Assembly: GCA_963808235.1 (NCBI GenBank) | Contig: CAWEEQ010000004.1 | Span: 2,976,001-3,040,000 of the forward strand | Length of the DNA stretch: 64,000 bases | Source of the DNA: an uncultured delta proteobacterium | GTDB lineage: Bacteria; Desulfobacterota; Binatia; Binatales; Binataceae | Direction of reading: 5' to 3' | Shown here: one piece after another, positions 26,527 to 43,095 of the stretch | How the letters are laid out: each line of letters starts with the position of its first letter | Position numbering within the stretch: the first letter of the stretch is position 1 | Made by a program: the position numbers and the translations under genes | The notes under the pieces: model-generated | The model's input: only the letters and a program-made list of their open reading frames with translations | Told to the model about the DNA's origin: nothing | Database searches by the model: none

Positions 26527-27972
26527 TCAGAGATCGGGACTGGTCGGCAGAAAGGTCTCGCCCATCAGGAAAGCATCGACGGCGCGCGCCGCCTCGCGCC
26601 CTTCCCATATCGCCCAGACGACCAGCGACTGTCCGCGGCGAGTATCGCCGGCGGCGAACACACCGGGCACGCTCGACATGTAGTTTCCGCACAGCACATT
26701 GCTGCGCGGATCGAGCTTGAGGCCGAGTTCCGAGACGATGCCCTCGGGCTCGGGGCCGAGAAATCCGAGCGCGAGCAGCACGAGGTCGCACTCGATCTCG
26801 AAGTCGCTGGCGGGAATTTGCTCCATCACCATGCGGCCGTTATCGTGCTTCCAGTTGAGGCGCACGCCGTGGAGTTTTTTCACGAAACCGTTTTCGCCGG
26901 AGAACTTGCTGGTGTTGATGCTCCAGTCGCGCTGGACACCCTCTTCATGTGAGCTCGAGGTGCGCATGATCATAGGCCAGTCGGGCCATGGCATCTCGGC
27001 GGTACGCTTCTCCGGCGGCATCGGGAGCAACTCGAACTGATGAACGACTTTGGCACCTTGGCGATTTGAAGTGCCGAGGCAATCGGAGCCGGTGTCGCCG
27101 CCGCCGAGAATTACAACCCGCTTTCCGTTCGCGGTGATCTCGGACGCGGGATCCAGCGCGTCGCCGAAGTTGCGCTTGTTCTGCTGCGGCAGGAATTCCA
27201 TCGCGTAGTGGATCCCCTTGAGCTCACGTCCGGGAATCGGCAGGTCGCGCGGTTTGGTCGCGCCCATCGTGAGCACGATCGCGTCGTATTTCGAGCGCAT
27301 CTCGTCGGCGTGGAGGTCGAACCCCACGCGGCAGTTGGTAACGATCTCGACGCCCTCGGCCTTCATCTGTTCGACGCGGCGATTTACGAGCCATTTCTCG
27401 AGCTTGAAATCCGGAATTCCATAGGTGAGCAGTCCCCCGACTCGATCTGACCGCTCGTAGAGAGTGACCGCATGTCCCGCGCGGGCGAGTTGCTGTGCGC
27501 ACGCCAGGCCGGCGGGACCCGATCCGACTACTGCGACCCGTTTGTTCGATTTGCGGGCCGGTATTTGCGGCGCGATCCATCCTTCGGTCCATGCATGATC
27601 GATGATGTTCTTTTCGATGAGCTTAATAGTCACCGGATCGTTGTTGATATTCAGGACGCAAGCTTCTTCGCAGGGTGCCGGGCAAATTCGGCCGGTAAAT
27701 TCGGGAAAATTGTTGGTCGAGTGAAGGCGGTCGATGGCCTCGCGCCATCTTCCGCGGTAAATCAGATCGTTCCAATCGGGTATGATATTTCCGAGCGGAC
27801 AACCCTTGTGGCAGAAGGGAATTCCGCAGTCCATACATCGCGCACCCTGAGCGCGCAGTTTCTCTTCGGGCATCTTGAGATCGAATTCGCGCCAGTCCTT
27901 GAGGCGTTCCCCGACGGGACGCCGCGAGGGAGTCTCGCGCTGAATCTCCATGAAGCCCGTAATCTTGCCCAT
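26527..27972 (-). CDS. gltD: Glutamate synthase small subunit
   Basis: [58 protein letters not shown]. Confidence 0.97.
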
Positions 27973-28044: not shown

Positions 28045-32606
<4,562 letters not shown>

Positions 32607-32607
<1 letters not shown>

Positions 32608-33167
32608 TACCCCCGTCTCAGATCGGGGAGCGCTGATTTCGCCGACGCGTGACGACTCCGCTTGCCGTTGGACGAATTCTCCGCGTCGCCGTTGGCATGC
32701 ACCGAGATCAGTCCGCGCTCGGTATGCGTCGAGAGCACGACCATCGTCTCGGTCCGCGACACTCCCTCGATCGAACGGATCGTGCTGATCAACCGTTCGA
32801 GCGACGAAGTGTTGTCGGTTTTGATTTTCAGCATCAGCGTGTGCTGCCCGGTGACGTGATGGCATTCGAGTACGTCTTCGAGCATCGCGACGGTCTCTTC
32901 GAAGAGCGCAATTGTTTTCGGATGGGAAATCGAAACGCCGATGAACGCGGTCACGTCCTTGCCGAGCCGGCTCGCGTCGACCGACGCGTGGTAGCCGGTG
33001 ATGATCGCGCTGTCCTCGAGTTTCTTGACGCGCTCGTTGACCGACGGCGCGGAGAGGCCGACCTGGTCTCCGAGTTTGACCAACGGGATGCGCCCGTGCT
33101 CCTGCAGGAGGTTAATAATCTGCAGGTCAATAGCGTCGAGTTCGGGGGAATCTCCACCGAATTTCAT
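32607..33167 (-). CDS. Lrp/AsnC family transcriptional regulator
   Basis: LDAIDLQII..LQ..GR..L...VGLSAPSV.ERVKKLE HTH, ECHHVTG; its stop overlaps the gltB start (TAATG). Confidence 0.94.
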
Positions 33168-33443: not shown

Positions 33444-34877
33444 TTACGAATGCGGATATGCGTCGCTGCCCATTTCCAGCGCGTCGAGTCCCGACCATTC
33501 CACTTCGACCAGCACGCGGTTGCCGATCGTTCGCTCTATGATCATGAAGAACAGCATCGCGAGGCCGAACACGACGATCAGGTTGACCGTGACGCCAATC
33601 AATTGCGCGAAGAATTGCCCCGGGTCGCCGTAGAGAATGCCGCGCACCGGACCGGCCACGCCGTTCCATCCGTCCCCGTAGGTTCCGTCGGCAAATAGTC
33701 CGAGTGCGAGTGCTCCCCAGATTCCGCACGCGCCGTGCACCGCGATCGCTCCGACCGGATCGTCGATGCGAAGCCGGCGCTCGAGCTCGATCACTGTCCA
33801 GACAACGATGAGGCCGGCGACGACGCCGATCAGTACCGCGGCCGCGGGCGTGACGAATGCGCACGGCGCCGTTATCGCGACTAGTCCGCCGAGCAAGCCG
33901 TTGGATGCCATCGCGATGTCGGGTTTGTTGAATCGATGCCACAGATAGAGCAGCGCTGCGAGTGCGCCGGCCGCCGAGGAGAGCATCGTGTTCACCGCGA
34001 TGATCGCGATACGGGGATCTGACGCGGCCAGAGTCGAGCCGCAGTTGAAGCCGAACCATCCGAAGGCGAGAATCAGCGTTCCGCTCACGGCCATCGGCAG
34101 ATTGTGTCCCGGCAGCGCGCCGATCGCGCCGTCGCGGCGGAACTTTCCGATTCGCGGTCCCACCATGTACGCGCCCGCCAGCGCGGTCACGCCGCCGGTC
34201 ATGTGCACCACTGAAGATCCGGCGAAATCAAGATGGCCATGTCCAAGTCCGAGATTCATGCCGAGCTGAGAGAGCCATCCGCCGCCCCATACCCAGTTTG
34301 CGTAAAGCGGGTACAGAAACATCGACATGAACAGCCCGTAAACGAAGAACGCTTTGAACTTCCATCGCTCCGCCATCGCGCCGGTCGGAATCGTCGCCGC
34401 GGTATCCATGAAGACCAGCGAGAACAGGAACATGCCGAGGCTGCCAGGATCGCGGCTCACATTGAGCAGCGCGAACTTGCTGAAGCCCAGAATCCCGTAG
34501 GAGTGCGACCCGATCGTAATGGAAAGTTCGCGATGCCCGATTGCGCTACTGCCCAGCGAAGGCCAATGCGCGACCCCGCCCATCATGAATGCGTATCCAG
34601 TCAGCCAGAATCCGATGATGCCGATCGGATAGATGATCAGATTCATCGCCATGGTGTTGACCGCGTTCTTCGAGCGGGTGAATCCCGTCTCCACCATCGC
34701 GAATCCGAGCTGCATGAACATCACGAGGAAGCCCGCGACCAGCAGCCATGCGAGGTTGAGCGAGTTGTCCAGCGGCGGCGACGACGCGGCGGTCTGCGCG
34801 CGCGCCGACGACGAAAATAAGATCACCACGGCGAAAGCGGCGGCGCCAAATACGAGATGCGTTCGTCTGGGAATCAT
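33444..34877 (-). CDS. amt: Ammonium transporter (Amt/Mep), copy 2
   Basis: FMQLGFAMVETG, DFAGSSVVH, GWFGFN.GS, NGLLGGLVAITA, DDPVGAIAVHG, E..GLD; ATG at 34877 overlaps the kinase stop (ATGA). Confidence 0.95.
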   Translation of the reverse strand: MIPRRTHLVFGAAAFAVVILFSSSARAQTAASSPPLDNSLNLAWLLVAGFLVMFMQLGFAMVETGFTRSKNAVNTMAMNLIIYPIGIIGFWLTGYAFMMGGVAHWPSLGSSAIGHRELSITIGSHSYGILGFSKFALLNVSRDPGSLGMFLFSLVFMDTAATIPTGAMAERWKFKAFFVYGLFMSMFLYPLYANWVWGGGWLSQLGMNLGLGHGHLDFAGSSVVHMTGGVTALAGAYMVGPRIGKFRRDGAIGALPGHNLPMAVSGTLILAFGWFGFNCGSTLAASDPRIAIIAVNTMLSSAAGALAALLYLWHRFNKPDIAMASNGLLGGLVAITAPCAFVTPAAAVLIGVVAGLIVVWTVIELERRLRIDDPVGAIAVHGACGIWGALALGLFADGTYGDGWNGVAGPVRGILYGDPGQFFAQLIGVTVNLIVVFGLAMLFFMIIERTIGNRVLVEVEWSGLDALEMGSDAYPHS

Positions 34878-35890
34878 CTCAACTGACCTCGGTAAGACCG
34901 GCGCGCCGGAGTTGACGCAGCCGGGTAACGGTTGGCGAGCCAAATCAAAAAAATGAAAATTCCGATCAGCGAGCTGAAGAAGAGCCCGTATACAATCCCG
35001 CGCCGCACTCGTTGCATCGCGAGACTGCGCGGATGCAAGTGCTTCGCGCGGCCCTTGGGCACGACCCGCGAGGGATCGCGAAGATCCTCGAGCATTTCCT
35101 GGGCGCTCGCGTAGCGGTCACGCGGTGCGCGCTCGATCGCATGCAGGATGATCTCTTCGAGATGCGGATCGATATCCGGCTTGAATGCGCTCGGCGGCTG
35201 CGGATCCTCCGCGGTCTTCGAGCGCATCACGTTGTACACGTTGGGACCCGAGTAAGGCAGATTGCCGGTCAGCATCTCGTAGAGGATCACGCCGAGCGAA
35301 TAGATGTCGGTGCGAACGTCGCCGCGCCGCCCGCTGACCTGCTCCGGCGCCATGTAGTCCGGGGTTCCGATCGTCGAGGAAAGACCGGACCAGGTGAGCC
35401 GCCGCGCCGATTCGTCGAGCGCGATTCCGAAGTCCATGATTTTCGTCTTGCCCTCGGCCGTGATGAGCACGTTCTCCGGTTTCAAGTCGCGATGCACCAC
35501 GCGCTCGCCGTGCATGTACACGAGCGTCTCGCAAATCTGGCACGCAATATCGAGCGCCTTTGCGGTCGGTAACCCGCCGGCTTCGCGCATCGTGGCGCGC
35601 AGCGAATCACCTTCGATGTACTCCATCGCGATGTACATCCGGCTCTTGCGCCGAGGTTTGAGCACCTTGACGATCCCGGGATGGTTGAGGCGCTGCCCGA
35701 CTTCTTCTTCGCGTTGGAAGCGGCCGTAGAAAACAACGTCGCTCTCGAACTGCATGTAGGGAACTTTTATCGCGACGGTTGCGCCGCCGATCTGATCGAT
35801 AGCCTTGAAGATCGACGCCATTCCGCTGCGCGCGATCACCTCGGTCAGTTTGTACTGATCGAGGCTTTCACCGACGCTGACCTCGCGCAT
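34874..35890 (-). CDS. Hanks-type Ser/Thr protein kinase with a C-terminal TM anchor
   Basis: VAIK, HRDLKPEN, DFG, GTPDYMAPE, DIYSLG; atypical P-loop ARSGMA; TM GIVYGLFFSSLIGIFIFLIWL. Confidence 0.95.
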   Translation of the reverse strand: MREVSVGESLDQYKLTEVIARSGMASIFKAIDQIGGATVAIKVPYMQFESDVVFYGRFQREEEVGQRLNHPGIVKVLKPRRKSRMYIAMEYIEGDSLRATMREAGGLPTAKALDIACQICETLVYMHGERVVHRDLKPENVLITAEGKTKIMDFGIALDESARRLTWSGLSSTIGTPDYMAPEQVSGRRGDVRTDIYSLGVILYEMLTGNLPYSGPNVYNVMRSKTAEDPQPPSAFKPDIDPHLEEIILHAIERAPRDRYASAQEMLEDLRDPSRVVPKGRAKHLHPRSLAMQRVRRGIVYGLFFSSLIGIFIFLIWLANRYPAASTPARRSYRGQLR

Positions 35891-35985
35891 GTTTGGGGCC
35901 GTCCGGGAAGAAGAGGCGGTTAGCGCAGGCTAACATCGCGCGGACTCGGCAGGCAATGCGGACGCGGTCGAAATCCCGCGTCGCT

Positions 35986-36813
35986 TCATCGCCCGAATAG
36001 TCCGCGCAGTCGCTCCCGCCATCCGCCGGTCGACGCCGTATGGCCGGTCGGCGCCGTCATTTTGAAAATCGCGCAAGTCAGGTTGTCCGCGGTTCCGCGC
36101 TGATTTGCTGCCTCGACCAGCTTGCGGCATCCGGTTTCGGCGTCGCAGTCGCGAGTCAGCGCTTCCAGCTGGTCGGGCTCGATCACGTTGTAGAGTCCGT
36201 CGCTGCACAGGATCAGGCGATCGCGTTCGACGAGCGGCATCGAGATCCTATCGATCGAAACGATCAGCTCGTGACCGAGACTTCGCAGCAACATCCCGCG
36301 TTCCGGATGATCCTTGGCCCGCGCCGCGGACATCAGACCCATGCGGACGCGGTCGGCGACCATGGTGTGGTCCTTGGTTATCTGGGTGAGATGGCTGTTG
36401 CGGATCAGATGCAAGCGGCAATCTCCGACGTGCACCGCGGAGAGAATCCCCTTATCGACTGCGACCGCAGTCAGCGTCGTCGCCATCCGGCACAATTCGG
36501 GTACGATCAGCGCCTTGTCATGAATCTCGATATTTGCGCGCTGGACCGCGCGATGGAGCCGCTTCGATGCTCCCCACTCGACCGGGCTTTCGCGAAAAGC
36601 CTCGAGCGTGACATCGATTGCGATGCGGCTCGCAATTTCGCCGCCCTCATATCCGCCAACCCCGTCGGCAATCGCGAATACGGCCGAGTCCGCATTCTCG
36701 ACAAAGTGCCCGCAGGAATCTTCGTTATTGCGTCGCTTGGTACCAATGTCGGATAGCAGCGCCAAATCGAAGGCCTGCTCGATGGAAGGCGGAGCGGCGG
36801 GCAAAGGTTCCAT
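35986..36813 (-). CDS. PP2C/PPM-family Ser/Thr phosphatase
   Basis: RRNNED, ADGVGG, HVGDCR, LCSDGL, GTADN. Confidence 0.95.
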   Translation of the reverse strand: MEPLPAAPPSIEQAFDLALLSDIGTKRRNNEDSCGHFVENADSAVFAIADGVGGYEGGEIASRIAIDVTLEAFRESPVEWGASKRLHRAVQRANIEIHDKALIVPELCRMATTLTAVAVDKGILSAVHVGDCRLHLIRNSHLTQITKDHTMVADRVRMGLMSAARAKDHPERGMLLRSLGHELIVSIDRISMPLVERDRLILCSDGLYNVIEPDQLEALTRDCDAETGCRKLVEAANQRGTADNLTCAIFKMTAPTGHTASTGGWRERLRGLFGR

Positions 36814-36944
36814 TGTCAATCAGCTTACCCGGAGATCGCGTGCTCAGGAAAATTCGGTCCACTTTGAAAATGGCCAAGGGCGGGCCGCGATCGCTCGCGG
36901 CTCGCCCATGGAATTATTCGCCAATCCAGCTTGAGTTTCGGGTA

Positions 36945-38612
36945 TCAGGCCGGCTTGGTTACCAGGATAGTTTCCTTCCCACGTCGCTTCGAATTTCGCA
37001 TGAAGTAGATCGCGCCATAGACACCCCAGATTACCGAGAGCGCGACCGCGATTAGTGGCTCCTTCACGCTGCCGAGTCCCTCCAGCGGTCCAATGATGTA
37101 GAAGGCGAGGCACGCGAAGTTCGCGACTGCGCCGAATACCGGTATCACCATGTGCTTGAGGCCGTGGAACTCGTGACGCTCCTGGTAGGCGACGATGCAG
37201 ACGATGTTGGTCAGCCCATAGAGCAGGAACGTTCCGAAGTTCGAGGTCAGCGTCACCAGCAGCAAGCCGTTGGGCAGCGCTGCGAGTGAGGCGTTCGAAC
37301 TCATCCCGATCGCGTACCAGAAGTTATGCGGAAGCGTTGCGATCGTTTTGTCATCGGGAGCCGAGCCGCCCGCGAAATAAAAGAGCGCTGCATAGGCGCC
37401 AATCACTGCCGAGATTGTGGCGAGCACCCAGATCGCGCGATGCGGCGTCAGGTTCTCGCCATGCAGCAAGCCAAAGTGCTCCGGCACTTCCTCGTCACGG
37501 CCCATCGCGTAAGTCACGCGCGCGCCGGTGTTGATGCAGGAGAGCGTGGTGCCGATCAGCGCGAGGAATACCGTCAACGCTTCCATCAGCATGAACGCCT
37601 GGCCGTGGCCGCCCATCAGCGCATTGCCGATGATCACCATCATGTCGCCGAGCGGGGCCGCGGAACCTTTGGCTGCCCCGAGACTGTAGGCGCTGTTCAG
37701 GAAGTAGTTGGCCGCAAAGTATTCGATCAGGTAGCAGAACAAACCCTGAATCGTGAGCGACAGAAGTACTCCGCGAGGAATATCTTTCTTCGGGTTGATC
37801 GCTTCTTCGCCGAGCGCGGTGACGGATTCAAACCCGACCAGCAACAGAATCGCGACCGTCGCCTGCAGCATCACCCAGTCGAAACGATGCGGCAGGATGA
37901 CCGATATTGCGCTCGCGTGCGAGGGATTGTCTCCGCCGAAACCGTACTTGACCGCGGCTGCGACCGTGTTGCCGTTAACATCGAGGCCGAGGCCCATCGA
38001 GCCATGCGGATGCGCCATGCGATAGGCTACCGCCAGCGCCGAGAAGAACAGCAGCGCTACGATCTGGATGCCGTTGATTGCGATGTTGACCATCGTCGAG
38101 CCGTTCACGCCGCGAAACGCGATCCACGCAACTGCGAATGCGAAAATGATCGCGATCAACGCCATGAAGACCGGTCCCGGAATCGACGCGTTGATCGTGT
38201 TGGGCGCGACGTTGCCCACGATGTATCCGATCATGATGCCCATCGTCGCGACCATCACTCCCGGATAAATCCAGTAGTAGAGATGCGACGACCAGCCGAT
38301 CACGAACTTCGCGATACGCGCGAACCTGTAGGCTTTGGTCTTGTTGAGGAACGCCTGCTCGGCGAACAAATACGAACTGCCCGCGCCGGGATACAGCTTG
38401 GCCAGTTCCGAGTACGAGATTGCGGTTGCATACGCGAGCAGCAGCGCGACGAAGATACCGGCCCACATCGCCAGTCCCGACGGGAACGCGTAGCCAGCCT
38501 GCTGGACGAACGTAATCCACAGGAAGGCTCCCGGCGCGATCAGCGCCATCGCGTTGACCGTCACCCCGGTCAGGCCAAGGGTCGGCACCATTTTCTTTTG
38601 TTCTTCAGCCAT
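36945..38612 (-). CDS. APC-family amino acid/amine permease
   Basis: YSELAKLYPGAGSSY, GFESVTALGEEA.NPK, ARVTYAMGRD, TPHRAI; 12+ TM segments. Confidence 0.92.
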   Translation of the reverse strand: MAEEQKKMVPTLGLTGVTVNAMALIAPGAFLWITFVQQAGYAFPSGLAMWAGIFVALLLAYATAISYSELAKLYPGAGSSYLFAEQAFLNKTKAYRFARIAKFVIGWSSHLYYWIYPGVMVATMGIMIGYIVGNVAPNTINASIPGPVFMALIAIIFAFAVAWIAFRGVNGSTMVNIAINGIQIVALLFFSALAVAYRMAHPHGSMGLGLDVNGNTVAAAVKYGFGGDNPSHASAISVILPHRFDWVMLQATVAILLLVGFESVTALGEEAINPKKDIPRGVLLSLTIQGLFCYLIEYFAANYFLNSAYSLGAAKGSAAPLGDMMVIIGNALMGGHGQAFMLMEALTVFLALIGTTLSCINTGARVTYAMGRDEEVPEHFGLLHGENLTPHRAIWVLATISAVIGAYAALFYFAGGSAPDDKTIATLPHNFWYAIGMSSNASLAALPNGLLLVTLTSNFGTFLLYGLTNIVCIVAYQERHEFHGLKHMVIPVFGAVANFACLAFYIIGPLEGLGSVKEPLIAVALSVIWGVYGAIYFMRNSKRRGKETILVTKPA

Positions 38613-38693
38613 CTTCCCTCCTCGAATCGCAAAGCGCGGTCGGGACCTGCGCTTTGGGTGCTCCCGTTACGGGCGGGAACCAAAGAGGCGTAC

Positions 38694-38709
38694 AGCACGA
38701 AAAGTGCCA
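38694..38709 (-). promoter_or_regulatory. Sigma-54 (-24/-12) promoter for the APC-PP2C-kinase-amt unit
   Basis: Minus strand TGGCACTTTTCGTGCT, GG-N10-GC, about 80 bp upstream of the ATG. Confidence 0.7.
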
Positions 38710-38749
38710 TTGAAATTGGCCCGATCAATAGTGAAAAAAGCAATGCCAA

Positions 38750-38766
38750 TGCCCAAGCGATGGGCA
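38750..38766. promoter_or_regulatory. NtrC-like palindromic binding site
   Basis: TGCCC-N7-GGGCA, 17 bp (NtrC consensus TGCAC-N7-GTGCA), upstream of the sigma-54 motif. Confidence 0.5.
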
Positions 38767-38832
38767 TCCGCCTATCAAGTAGTCATCAGCACGCGATGGT
38801 TCGTTCTTTGTGCGACCGATGCCGCGTCGGGC

Positions 38833-39078
38833 TCAGCTAGCTGCGACGATGGCGCGGGCTACCAAGGCTGGAAGTTCGATCGTCATAAAGCAGCTTTCGG
38901 GGAATAGATAGTCTTCGCCGGATTCATCAACCACGCGCACTAGCCGGTGCCCCTCGGCGACCGAGTCGGGAACGACTCTGTAGACCTTGCGGAGTTCAAG
39001 TGATGCCGCGAAACCTCGGTTCCGGACACAGACCACAAAACGAGAATTTCCCGCGCGGTGTTTCAAGATTCCTTTCAA
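38833..39078 (-). CDS. Small conserved-looking hypothetical protein
   Basis: FVVCVRN.G..ASLELRKVY...RVVDESGEDYLFP pattern; 12-bp tandem duplication (39061-39084) at its 5' end. Confidence 0.65.
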   Translation of the reverse strand: MKGILKHRAGNSRFVVCVRNRGFAASLELRKVYRVVPDSVAEGHRLVRVVDESGEDYLFPESCFMTIELPALVARAIVAAS

Positions 39079-39148
39079 GATTCCGAGGATAATAGGCGGC
39101 GGGTCACTCCGAAAGACAATACGCCGTCATCACTTTGCGCGATTCATT

Positions 39149-39640
39149 TTAGTTGCCGCATCTCTCCAGCGATTCAAATTGCCAATTGGCCAGTCGATAC
39201 ACCAGGCCGAGCGACTTGAGTTTCATCCCGAGCGACCCGGCCGTTGCCGCCGCGGCTTCCGCGCGGGTGACTATCCCGGCAACGATTGGATCTCCGGAAG
39301 CCGGGTCGAGCACCCGCAGCTCGATCTCGTCAGTATCGGGCAGAGTTGCGAACAGCCGGGAGATCGCGGCGTCGACATCCTGGAGGCATTGCTGCACGAA
39401 TAACTGCGCGGCCCGCTCCGGAGGCACGCCGCGATCCCAGGGATGAATTTTTCTTGCGTGCCATTCGACTTCGAGCCGATTGCGCATCCTCTTGAGCGAA
39501 AGGCCGTCGTTGCGAATTCCCGCCCGACGATTAACCTCGAGCGCCCCGATCACCTTGCGCCGCAGTCGCTGCTGAGCCAGATAGGTTACAAATTTTTTCG
39601 CTGCGCTTATCACAATCCGGTTCCATGCTCGGGCCGGCAC
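39149..39640 (-). CDS. Hypothetical soluble protein downstream of amt copy 1
   Basis: 163-aa ORF with globular composition, co-oriented with amt; no family recognised. Confidence 0.6.
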   Translation of the reverse strand: MPARAWNRIVISAAKKFVTYLAQQRLRRKVIGALEVNRRAGIRNDGLSLKRMRNRLEVEWHARKIHPWDRGVPPERAAQLFVQQCLQDVDAAISRLFATLPDTDEIELRVLDPASGDPIVAGIVTRAEAAAATAGSLGMKLKSLGLVYRLANWQFESLERCGN

Positions 39641-39754
39641 GAGTCGTTGGCTGAATACCGACTCGGGCCGGCCCGTCTGCTTCGCGCACTTTAGATGACT
39701 TCCCGCAAAGCCATCGGTGCAGTTAAAAGTTAACCGTTCACTTCGAAGGCGCGA

Positions 39755-41317
39755 TCAGCTTGCCTCCTTCATCTTGATTTTCGGAAGCTTCACGCCGGTG
39801 CGCCGGCCGATTGGTACGTCGTCGATAGTCTTCGGGCACCCGTCGTCACCGTTAACCACATATTCCGGGTACGCCGGGAATCCGTGCTCGTGCAAGTCGA
39901 GTCCTTCAATTTCTCCCTCGGTCGGAATGCGCAGTCTGAAGCTCCACTTGATTGCGTACATAAGGGCCATCGAGACAACGAAGGTCGCGATCGTGATCGA
40001 AAAACTTCCGATCATCTGCGCCTTCAGAACCCCAAAGCCGCCTCCGTAAAAGAGGCCGGTAACAACACTGCTAGTGTCCGCGCCCATCGCGGTCGGCGCG
40101 CCGTACTTGCCGGCAGCGAACAGCCCCAGCGACAGCGTGCCCCAGATTCCCGCGATCATATGCACCGGGACCGCCCCGATAGGATCGTCAATGCGCAGGT
40201 ATTCGAGCAGGTCGATACCCCAGACCACTACGATTCCAGCGCCGATTCCGAGCAGGAACGCGCCCTCGGGATCGACCCAGTAGCAGGGGCAGGTTATCGC
40301 AACCAGTCCGGCCAGGAATCCGTTGACGGTCAGCGCCAGATCCCACTTCTGACCCTTGATGTACGAATAAAAGAGCGATGTCAGGCCCGCCGAGCAGGCT
40401 GCTATCGTCGTGTTGAACGAGACGCGGCCTATGCCTTGTGCATCCATGGCCGAAAGCGTGCTGCCTGGATTGAACCCGTACCATCCGAACCACAGGATGA
40501 GTCCGCCGGTCGCACCGATGATCAAGTCGTGTGGCTTCATCGGTTGACCGCCGTCGCGCTTGAACACGCGTCCGAGCCTGGGTCCGAGTGCGATTGCGCC
40601 CGCCAGAGAGATCGTTCCGCCGATCGTATGGACCACGGTCGATCCCGCGAAATCGTGAAAGTTAACCGGGTTCAGATTCGCCAGCCACCCGTCCGGACCC
40701 CATGCCCAGTGACCGATGATCGGATAGATGAAGCCGGTGACGCCGACGCTGTAGAGCAAGTCGCCGATAAAATCGCAGCGACCGATCATCGCGCCCGAGG
40801 TAACCGTCGAGCAGGTGTCCGCGAATGCATACTGGAATACCCAGTACGCGAGCAGCGGAACGCCGGTGGTGCCGTACGTCGGCGCGAGGCCATGCAGCAT
40901 GAAGCCGGTGGTGCCAATCCATGGCGTTCCCGGACAGAACATGAATGCGAAACCCCACAGCCAGAACGTGACACCGCAGATGCAGGTGTCGGCGATACCT
41001 TCCACCAGGATGTTGACCGTCTCACGTGACCGGGCAAATCCCGACTCCAGCATCACGAATCCAACCTGCATGCAGAAAACCAGGTACGCGGCGACCAGCG
41101 TCCACACCGTATTGATCGCGTTGATATGCGGCGGCGGTAATGCCGGCGCGGTGTCGGCATATGCCGAGGCCGGCAGATACCACTTCGTGATCAGTAACAG
41201 CACCAGTCCGAGCCCGATCATTTTGCCGGCCAATAGCGATCCCGCGTTGCGGCGGACCATCGGGTCACGCCATGCTTCGCGGATCCTCTGCGGTAATCCT
41301 ACTAATCCTGAGTACAT
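39755..41317 (-). CDS. amt: Ammonium transporter (Amt/Mep), copy 1, with N- and C-terminal extensions
   Basis: MQVGFVMLESG, HDFAGSTVVH, WFGWYGFNPGS, NGFLAGLVAIT, DDPIGAVPVH, EIEGLD; RBS GGAGGGAG before ATG at 41317. Confidence 0.95.
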   Translation of the reverse strand: MYSGLVGLPQRIREAWRDPMVRRNAGSLLAGKMIGLGLVLLLITKWYLPASAYADTAPALPPPHINAINTVWTLVAAYLVFCMQVGFVMLESGFARSRETVNILVEGIADTCICGVTFWLWGFAFMFCPGTPWIGTTGFMLHGLAPTYGTTGVPLLAYWVFQYAFADTCSTVTSGAMIGRCDFIGDLLYSVGVTGFIYPIIGHWAWGPDGWLANLNPVNFHDFAGSTVVHTIGGTISLAGAIALGPRLGRVFKRDGGQPMKPHDLIIGATGGLILWFGWYGFNPGSTLSAMDAQGIGRVSFNTTIAACSAGLTSLFYSYIKGQKWDLALTVNGFLAGLVAITCPCYWVDPEGAFLLGIGAGIVVVWGIDLLEYLRIDDPIGAVPVHMIAGIWGTLSLGLFAAGKYGAPTAMGADTSSVVTGLFYGGGFGVLKAQMIGSFSITIATFVVSMALMYAIKWSFRLRIPTEGEIEGLDLHEHGFPAYPEYVVNGDDGCPKTIDDVPIGRRTGVKLPKIKMKEAS

Positions 41318-41405
41318 CAGATCGTCTCCCTCCAAGTTTGATTTTGGCGTTGGCCTGCGCGCCCCAGCCGGCGCGAACGGACGCGGACTTCGCGCCCAGC
41401 AGTGG

Positions 41406-41421
41406 AGCAACTGCGATGCCA
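41406..41421 (-). promoter_or_regulatory. Sigma-54 (-24/-12) promoter for amt copy 1
   Basis: Minus strand TGGCATCGCAGTTGCT; upstream palindrome ATCGTGCA-N3-TGCACGAT at 41451-41469. Confidence 0.75.
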
Positions 41422-41565
41422 TGCAAATTGCAGCTATTTCAAAACAGGAGATCGTGCACTTTGCACGATTTGCAGGCATACGGCGACTGCGGAGTCATCA
41501 CTGGAGGAAGTGTCTATACCGCGCGCAAATGGGCAAGGCAGTGAAGCAAAGTGGAAGAGACCAGC

Positions 41566-43095
41566 CTATTTTGCTCGCGAGCGCGGAACACCCAGCGCCA
41601 CCATCAGCAGAGGACTTTTGCCCGCGGCGTGCGGCGCGAAAAATTTTGTCGTGTCGTCGTCATAGAAAGTAAGTCCCGTCGCACCGCGGCCGAGCGAGTA
41701 CGCGGCCAGGTAGGCGCGGCCTCCCAGAATTCCCGCTTCGAGATGAGCTTCGCCGTAGCCGCGATTTCCGAATGCGCCGAGCACGCGCTCGAGGTCCGTC
41801 ATGTAAACGACCAGCGCGCTGCAATCCATTCCGAGCGGCTGCTCGAGGCACAGGTATCCGGCCTCGCCGCGGAAGTTGCCCGGTTTCAGCAGCTCGAATC
41901 CGCGCTCGCGCCGATTGTAGTAGTACGCGCCGGACTCCATCCCGCTCGCCGCGTTGACGATCAGGTAGGTATCGGTCAGGGGCGGAAAGTCGGCGCGCGG
42001 ATGCTCACTCGAGGCGGCCATGATAGTGGCGAGTTCCTCCGCGGTGATCGCGTCCTGGGCAAACGCTCGCGTCGAGCCGCGGCGCAAAATTGTCTCGCCG
42101 AGGCCAATCGCCTCTTCGGGCTCGATCACGTTGAAGCGACGCATCCCGATGGCCGGATGCTCTGGCCTGGGTTCGAGATTTGCGTTTGCGACCAGCCCGA
42201 CCTCGTCGGCGGTCACCAGGCGCGACTCGCGATGTATCTTCACCAGATCGTTGTAGACCACCTCGCTCGCTGAGAGTGGAATCGTTTCAAGTTCGAGCGG
42301 CGAAAGTGCCGGCGACGGTGCGGCCGGCTCTTCCGAACCGCCGAGCGCAATCAGCACGACCATCCCTTCTCGTTCGCCGTCGATTCCGAGCAGCGTCTCG
42401 AGTGCCGGATCCTCGAAAGCGGTAATCACTTCAGCGGAAATTCCGTCCGCCGCGGCTGCGGCAAGCAGATTCGCGAGCATCGTGCCCGCGTCCCAATAGC
42501 AATAGCGATAGGCCCGCGCGCGATACTTCCATTCGCTTCGCCAATAGATCGCGGTGAGCGCAATCACCGCGCTCGCGCGCCCGATCGACGGACGCATCGC
42601 GGCCGCTTTTGCCAGGTACTCGCGCCAGTCCCCGCGCCGAAGACCGGTCATCCGCAAATCCGCGGGCGAAAAGTGATAAAGGCCGGCCTCCAGTCCTTCG
42701 ACCGCAGTCGCGCTCACGTAAATCTCTATCGGGTAGAGCGCGCCGGCCGATGGCGCCGCGCGAAAATGGTAATCCTCGTTGCCGACGCGCTTTTGCCGCG
42801 TGAGTCCGTCGGCGCAGAACAGTATCCGGGTGAGCGCGGCAATATCGACCGGCGCGGACGACTGCGGCGCCGGACTCATCTCAAGCGCGGCCAGAGTGGG
42901 CATCGCCGCCAGGTTCAGATCGCGTGGCAGCGCGACCGATGCGGCGCCGGGATAGATCTTGTACGGGATCGGCTTGTTGTCCCAGTCGAGAATATGCGGC
43001 GACGAACGAACGCTCGTGTAGGAGTGCTTGGTGACCTCGTGAAAAACGCGAGCCGCCTCGATGTATTCGTTGCCCAATTCGATACCTCGCACCAT
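41566..43095 (-). CDS. SagB/ThcOx-family dehydrogenase with tandem nitroreductase domains
   Basis: FRAAPSAGALYPIEIY, WKYRARAYR, DAG; second domain RRGSTRAF..AYLAAYSLG.GATG. Confidence 0.88.
   Translation of the reverse strand: MVRGIELGNEYIEAARVFHEVTKHSYTSVRSSPHILDWDNKPIPYKIYPGAASVALPRDLNLAAMPTLAALEMSPAPQSSAPVDIAALTRILFCADGLTRQKRVGNEDYHFRAAPSAGALYPIEIYVSATAVEGLEAGLYHFSPADLRMTGLRRGDWREYLAKAAAMRPSIGRASAVIALTAIYWRSEWKYRARAYRYCYWDAGTMLANLLAAAAADGISAEVITAFEDPALETLLGIDGEREGMVVLIALGGSEEPAAPSPALSPLELETIPLSASEVVYNDLVKIHRESRLVTADEVGLVANANLEPRPEHPAIGMRRFNVIEPEEAIGLGETILRRGSTRAFAQDAITAEELATIMAASSEHPRADFPPLTDTYLIVNAASGMESGAYYYNRRERGFELLKPGNFRGEAGYLCLEQPLGMDCSALVVYMTDLERVLGAFGNRGYGEAHLEAGILGGRAYLAAYSLGRGATGLTFYDDDTTKFFAPHAAGKSPLLMVALGVPRSRAK

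Follow-up and report, generated by a model that had tools for sequence, protein, structure and literature searches.

To our knowledge, PII proteins are the only means by which prokaryotes are known to control ammonium uptake post-translationally, and control of this uptake by phosphorylation is regarded as a eukaryotic solution. In yeast the kinase Npr1 acts on Mep2, a member of the ammonium transporter (Amt) family, and on Gap1, a member of the APC family, and in plants AMT1 is phosphorylated at its C-terminus. Here, a locus of an uncultured bacterium of the Binataceae (class Binatia) is described within a 64,000-nucleotide stretch of assembly GCA_963808235.1 (contig CAWEEQ010000004.1, forward-strand positions 2,976,001 to 3,040,000; hereafter the window, to which all coordinates without a contig name refer), in which the genes for an APC-superfamily permease, a PP2C phosphatase and a Hanks-type Ser/Thr kinase are followed by an ammonium transporter gene, amt2. 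The permease-phosphatase-kinase module is widespread and sits in nitrogen-assimilation loci, and the window holds its Binataceae form with a coupled Amt. The arrangement is reminiscent of glnK-amtB, a nitrogen-regulated operon in which the gene of an ammonium transporter is transcribed together with that of its regulator, but the gene coupled to amt2 encodes a Ser/Thr kinase and the action proposed for it would be covalent instead of a plugging of the channel.

Like Npr1, the module kinase is associated with nitrogen transporters of both the Amt and the APC family, although the two kinases belong to unrelated kinase families, and as in the phosphorylated yeast and plant transporters there is a conserved C-terminal Ser/Thr in amt2. 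Hanks kinases beside PP2C phosphatases likewise occur as Stk1/Stp1, PknB/PstP and PrkC/PrpC, and NF033483 and NF033484 are the best NCBIfam matches of the module pair; however, both scores lie under the cut-offs and the kinase is devoid of PASTA repeats or another extracellular domain. In SAR11 an Amt fused to a PPM-type phosphatase domain likewise ties an Amt module to Ser/Thr phospho-signalling in a bacterium, but this is a covalent fusion for which neither a kinase nor a permease is reported (PMC11796062). Neither the module nor the control of a bacterial Amt by a Ser/Thr kinase is described in the literature searched, with subscription journals outside its coverage, or in passages of a 2023 review on prokaryotic Amts. 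An earlier note on this DNA had mentioned a kinase in the nas cluster of Pseudomonas; a literature search on this protein, PA1782, returned nothing on nitrogen.

All genes of the cluster are located on the minus strand in the order SagB-like nitroreductase, amtA, a gene for a 163-aa protein, APC permease, PP2C, kinase, amt2, Lrp, gltB and gltD; from amtA on, the earlier note had read the same order, with Lrp-gltBD after amt2. The permease (36945-38612, 555 aa) is followed by the soluble PP2C (PPM) Ser/Thr phosphatase (35986-36819, 277 aa), the kinase (34874-35890, 338 aa) and amt2 (33444-34877, 477 aa). As had been pointed out before, the stop codon of the kinase gene overlaps the start codon of amt2 in an ATGA (...CAG TTG AGA TGA, with the amt2 ATG at 34877-34875). 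Judged by profile matches, the pieces belong to known families, namely Amt, APC, PPM and Hanks kinase, and no piece reaches a subfamily cut-off.

Conservation of the arrangement was assessed in 78 loci fetched around kinase orthologues, onto which the window proteins were mapped by tblastn. A kinase orthologue with 76-87% identity is present in 34 of the 36 species of the genus (a tally including the unpublished genomes G018 and G023), and at E <= 1e-70 the kinase is found in 83 of 94 family genomes and 105 of 401 class genomes (tallies including the unpublished genomes G241, G018, G387, G023 and G236). An Amt gene lies within 400 bp after the kinase in 13 of 16 same-genus loci, 12 of them with overlapping start and stop. 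In the other genera of the family the same holds for 31 of 40 loci, and the overlap occurs in none of these; for the Binataceae overall, an Amt directly follows the kinase in 44 of 56 loci. The kinase-amt2 arrangement is thus far from chance. Among loci with enough sequence, PP2C and permease genes are located upstream of the kinase in 11/15 of the genus, 29/38 of other genera of the family and 10/13 of other families of the class.

Beyond the family, the unit that persists is a different one. An alignment of nine Binatia permeases led to 80 loci from species genomes, with the phylum of the carriers taken from record titles, and the order APC-PP2C-kinase is found in 35 of the 37 non-Binatia APC loci with at least 2.5 kb of downstream sequence (the exceptions being L165 and L193) as well as in 18 of 25 such Binatia loci, the other seven of which hold permease paralogues that stand alone. 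The carriers of the trio are Acidobacteriota, Ignavibacteriota, Bacteroidota, Chloroflexota, Spirochaetota, Planctomycetota and Myxococcota, which together with Binatota makes eight phyla. The conserved core is APC-PP2C-kinase and not kinase-Amt. Of the Amt-centred switch proposed in the earlier note, the stable linkage of a dedicated kinase/PP2C pair to nitrogen transporters is borne out, while the constant partner of the pair is the APC permease; likewise, of the four-gene neighbourhood it had proposed to search for, the trio is widespread and the Amt directly after the kinase is limited to the Binataceae and two Myxococcota loci. Outside the Binataceae, a single Myxococcales locus has an Amt gene no more than 400 bp behind the kinase, and in one locus of the Anaeromyxobacteraceae there is an overlap of 17 bp between the kinase match and the Amt match. 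The overlapping Amt of the latter (L195) is 66% identical to amt2 and its kinase nests inside the Binataceae with support 100/100, which suggests that the kinase-amt unit has moved between phyla.

The association of the trio with nitrogen genes extends to loci of other layouts. Within at most 17.8 kb, an Amt is encoded in 18, a PII in 12 and either of them in 22 of the 39 non-Binatia trio loci, and 16 of 18 Binatia trio loci contain an Amt or PII gene. The genome under study carries three Amt genes and one full PII gene in 4.6 Mb, and at four such genes per genome of this size their presence beside the trio appears far above chance. The layouts vary between lineages, as amt-PII may lie downstream or upstream, or amt may be divergent or come right behind the kinase, which argues for selection rather than for one inherited layout.

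A sigma-54 type -24/-12 promoter-like motif (TGGCAC-N5-GTGCT, 38694-38709, minus strand) with one mismatch to the consensus is located 82 nt 5' of the APC start codon, and rpoN is present in the genome. About 100 nt 5' of the APC gene, 26 of 56 and 19 of 82 scanned regions have the strict motif, against a background of 0.0056 per 275-nt region; it is found upstream of PP2C in 0/131, of the kinase in 0/134, of amt2 in 1/74 and of Lrp in 0/51 cases. As the pattern is not enriched over the whole window (26 matches versus 21.7 expected), the argument is one of position and conservation. A promoter/terminator scan gave no terminator-like site in the gaps between permease, PP2C, kinase and amt2, and a motif restricted to the permease together with the lack of internal terminators fits one sigma-54 dependent operon permease-PP2C-kinase-amt2.

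The kinase (PF00069, E 3.8e-48, 164.6 bits) contains one hydrophobic stretch, which spans residues 297-321 of its 338 and is followed by 17 residues after this anchor, and no sensor domain. The match to the PASTA kinase family NF033483 covers the kinase part alone (positions 7-269 of 563, 293 bits versus a cut-off of 450), and the extracellular PASTA repeats are absent. In an alignment of 25 family members K42, E61, H133-R134-D135, N140 and D153-F154-G155 are invariant, as is the TP..PEQ segment. Neither the anchor nor the juxtamembrane region shows sequence conservation, which in the case of the anchor is expected of a simple tether. The glycine-rich loop GxGxxG does not occur in the family; this kinase reads ARSGMA and another subclade A(Q/K/R)GGMS, with only G23 and M24 invariant. 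Among 40 kinase open reading frames (ORFs) from permease-anchored loci, about 320-330 aa long, 35 end in a hydrophobic segment, and three of the five missing the anchor are cut by a contig end. The anchor, the lack of a sensor and the ARSGMA loop had all been observed correctly in the earlier note; P-loop and anchor are however traits of the whole family and not peculiar to this gene. The phylogeny that it had called for groups the 25 module kinases in one clade with support 96/94, set against a thin outgroup of the four other kinases of the genome. Those other Hanks kinases adjoin FHA genes and the module kinase does not; a GarA-type FHA partner was considered and rejected, as the genome has nine FHA matches and none of them is in the window.

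The phosphatase (PF13672, 57 bits; PF00481, 38 bits) reaches 210.7 bits with the Stp1/IreP family NF033484 (cut-off 230), displays the motifs NED, DGVGG, SDG and DN in its translation and has no hydrophobic segment. The permease, with about 12 hydrophobic segments, is the most conserved part of the module, with 47-63% identity across phyla and more than 100 invariant residues. It matches PF00324 above the cut-off (39.2 bits) and falls far below the cut-offs of TIGR00909 (85.8 versus 556.8 bits), NF053761 and TIGR00906, so no known APC subfamily is reached; its best match in the PDB is CAT1 (E 3.4e-6). A complex prediction for permease and kinase gave a score of 0.00 and, having been run without controls, weighs neither way.

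The transporter amt2 (PF00909, E 1.1e-109; TIGR00836 above cut-off) has an N-terminal signal-like segment and, as had been claimed for both Amts of the cluster, shares with amtA the two pore histidines of the twin-His motif; the two proteins are 40% identical. Its C-terminal region is conserved as EVEW[S/T]GLDxLEMG[S/T]xAY and ends three residues past the conserved AY, with no fused cytoplasmic transducer. A Ser or Thr occupies the EMG[S/T] position in 43 of 44 distinct amt2 tails, the 44th being mis-extracted. In other phyla two amt2-like genes (L156, L179) have a glnK partner, which amt2 lacks here, and the two glnK-paired proteins carry Val or Ala at this position. The residue of amt2 that would presumably correspond to the plant AMT1 threonine (AtAMT1;1 T460) is not a Ser/Thr. 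Separately, Amt-like genes stand beside the trio in Terriglobia/Acidobacteriota loci (L160, L161, L171-L174, L177, L182), mostly divergent from the permease and in two loci 3' of the kinase; their products have Gln for the first pore His and Asn where assimilatory Amts have Tyr.

Cumulatively, these observations point tentatively, with a confidence that stops just short of even, to a nitrogen-regulated scavenging operon whose kinase and phosphatase would have the co-encoded transporters as their targets. A sigma-54 type promoter would drive the permease, PP2C, kinase and, in the Binataceae, the translationally coupled amt2, presumably under nitrogen limitation. A generic C-terminal anchor would tether the sensor-less kinase to the membrane on its inner side. 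Together with the soluble PP2C, the kinase would reversibly phosphorylate the transporters expressed along with it, which are the permease in all carriers and additionally Amt2 in the Binataceae, thereby adjusting uptake quickly as the nitrogen supply changes. Such a pair would work alongside the PII/GlnD system and not in its place. The direction of the signal from kinase to transporter is favoured over the two readings in which the transporter is the sensor or PII is the target, with the same just-short-of-even confidence, as both statements were judged together.

Several observations weigh against this proposal. The sequence provides no explanation for the input of the kinase, and the permease has short tails of about 10-20 residues. 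The strict sigma-54 motif is found at only 45 of 138 APC genes, mostly of Binatia, and sigma-54 serves functions besides nitrogen control. GlnD, GlnE and PII are encoded elsewhere in the genome and could regulate the Amts alone, a circumstance which the earlier note, for a GlnK, had named as refuting its proposal. In other families of the class, an Amt follows the kinase in none of 17 loci; an Amt can therefore be neither the ancestral nor the only target.

Inverting the direction of the signal would account for a kinase without an input domain of its own: the permease and/or Amt2 would report its occupancy to the kinase, which in turn would phosphorylate nitrogen regulators, as in a split analogue of the Amt-histidine kinase receptor Ks-Amt5. 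This reading, which we consider unlikely, draws on the nearest solved structures to amt2, Ks-Amt5 (6eu6, 226.7 bits) and Sd-Amt1, with AmtB behind at about 166 bits; both are described as ammonium receptors (PMC5764959, PMC11152129). At the receptor site (N1/N2), with positions mapped through a HMMER alignment to 6eu6, amt2 reads QEMNIYTT, amtA QEEGDTTS and seven fused homologues QEKND(F/Y/L)TS, so that amt2 matches five of eight positions, sharing with the receptors Gln, Glu, Asn and two Thr, including the Glu in place of the Tyr of assimilatory Amts (PMC11152129). The Asp and the switch Lys/Arg are however absent, hence the complete N1/N2 set is not present, and in contrast to the receptors amt2 has no fused transducer. 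A Pkinase domain (PF00069) is carried by none of the 120 listed longer homologues of amt2, whose fusion partners are histidine kinase, GGDEF, MCP or cyclase modules; as the search scored only those 7999 candidates that had most words in common, this is a weak argument. The lack of sequence conservation in the membrane and juxtamembrane segments of the kinase also speaks against this reading. In one same-genus species (L115; G331:C3, 6341-8791) kinase and amt2 read as a single 816-aa ORF, which fits this reading, but the topology of such a protein is hard to square with an N-out Amt, and the ORF could reflect either a genuine fusion or an error by an indel.

As a further alternative, the pair might act on PII or another soluble nitrogen regulator, by analogy to cyanobacteria, in which PII is phosphorylated at Ser49 and dephosphorylated by the PP2C enzyme PphA, while the responsible kinase has yet to be identified (PMC11863333). 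A PII gene whose T-loop reads YRGSEY is located directly 5' of the permease in seven Binataceae loci of sister genera (L059, L061, L066, L075, L118, L119, L138), a Ser49 PII also occurs in three Ignavibacteriota loci, and in all five genomes checked the cluster Ser49 PII is an extra paralogue beside other PII genes. Furthermore, L049 and L112 have a PII gene in divergent orientation to the kinase, and an ANTAR regulator follows the kinase in three Binatia loci of another family, two of them with a nitrite reductase (both genes lie 3' of the kinase in L048, with matches to them in L103 and L107). Against this stands the PII of the present genome, which is not that of a cyanobacterium: the window has no PII (PF00543) match, and the sole full-length PII, about 191 kb past the window end with no Amt beside it and with two short partial matches elsewhere, carries Ala49 instead of Ser49, and GlnD is present. 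In addition, 27 of 39 trio loci of other phyla have no PII within reach, and PII genes adjoining amt encode Thr, Ala or another residue at position 49. We regard it as quite unlikely that PII or another soluble regulator is the target. On the absence of an adjacent glnK at both cluster Amts the earlier note was right, and no PII lies beside any of the three Amt genes of the genome; as a conserved trait, however, its "PII-free" label did not hold, as PII is encoded in the cluster in 10 of 57 Binataceae loci and 12 of 39 trio loci of other phyla, and "PII-free" here describes adjacency only.

That there is no direct mechanistic link at all, with the distant PII/GlnD controlling the Amts and kinase/PP2C serving another process, is very improbable: the genome does encode PII, GlnD and GlnE, but the conservation of the trio in eight phyla, the recurrence of Amt and PII beside it in several arrangements and the overlap of the kinase stop with the amt2 start speak against it.

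With respect to the remainder of the cluster, amtA (ORF 39755-41479, minus strand; PF00909, E 4.7e-107; TIGR00836 above cut-off) probably starts downstream of the ORF start, near ~41317. A sigma-54 motif 5' of it (41406-41421) is present in only one of 14 relatives and is not claimed. The 163-aa conserved protein of no assigned family encoded beside it (39149-39640, minus strand) is 67-87% identical after amtA in eight Binataceae loci, and a homologue with 35% identity adjoins an amtA-type gene in a Terriglobia locus, L166 (all homologue loci being L041, L045, L046, L053, L117, L122, L124, L125 and L166); amtA and the 163-aa gene are found in the loci of some relatives only. The protein has no Pfam or NCBIfam match, its Atlas neighbours are all hypothetical proteins, and its structure model (mean pLDDT 72) has no PDB fold match at E <= 0.001; it may be an Amt partner of some unrecognised kind. 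Of the two hypothetical genes of the earlier note this one is thus conserved, while the 81-aa ORF (38833-39078, minus strand) gave no tblastn match under the filters used in 158 fetched loci and is therefore probably not a gene.

Downstream of amt2, the Lrp/AsnC-family regulator (32607-33167) is located directly 5' of gltB (28045 to ~32607), followed by gltD (26527-27972), all on the minus strand, and this Lrp-gltBD synteny, encoding glutamate synthase, is kept within the family. The gltB region (28045-32865, minus strand) consists of three pieces, the middle one (~29978-30871) out of frame with its flanks in the assembly; as the three share one frame in 31 of 32 relatives, the frame breaks reflect either two assembly indel errors or a broken gene. 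On the other side, a SagB-like nitroreductase of 509 aa with two nitroreductase stretches (41566-43095, minus strand) usually flanks the cluster on its upstream side in Binataceae, with no evident link to the module. Several Binataceae genera carry a 2.1-2.7 kb insert between permease and PP2C (L064, L067, L068, L071, L073, L076-L078, L080, L082-L084, L088, L090 and others), which contains the gene of a possible porin of about 500 aa whose N-terminus is signal-like (12 loci), and an ORF of about 130 aa (18 loci).

In its broadest form, the proposal would amount to an Npr1-like logic in at least eight phyla, in which one tethered kinase with its PP2C gates APC and Amt transporters according to nitrogen supply and, where a Ser49 PII belongs to the module, acts on PII as well; we consider this generalization doubtful. 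The module nevertheless offers a candidate for the unidentified PII kinase, and if the proposal is true, the kinase of the Ser49-PII lineages would be the first family of PII kinases to be identified. By its small size the module lends itself to heterologous expression. By analogy to yeast and plants, the findings suggest that protein phosphorylation may serve to control nitrogen uptake in bacteria as well. If so, a highly conserved uncharacterised permease family would acquire a function, and nitrogen uptake in many soil and sediment phyla would be subject to a second, widespread layer of control.

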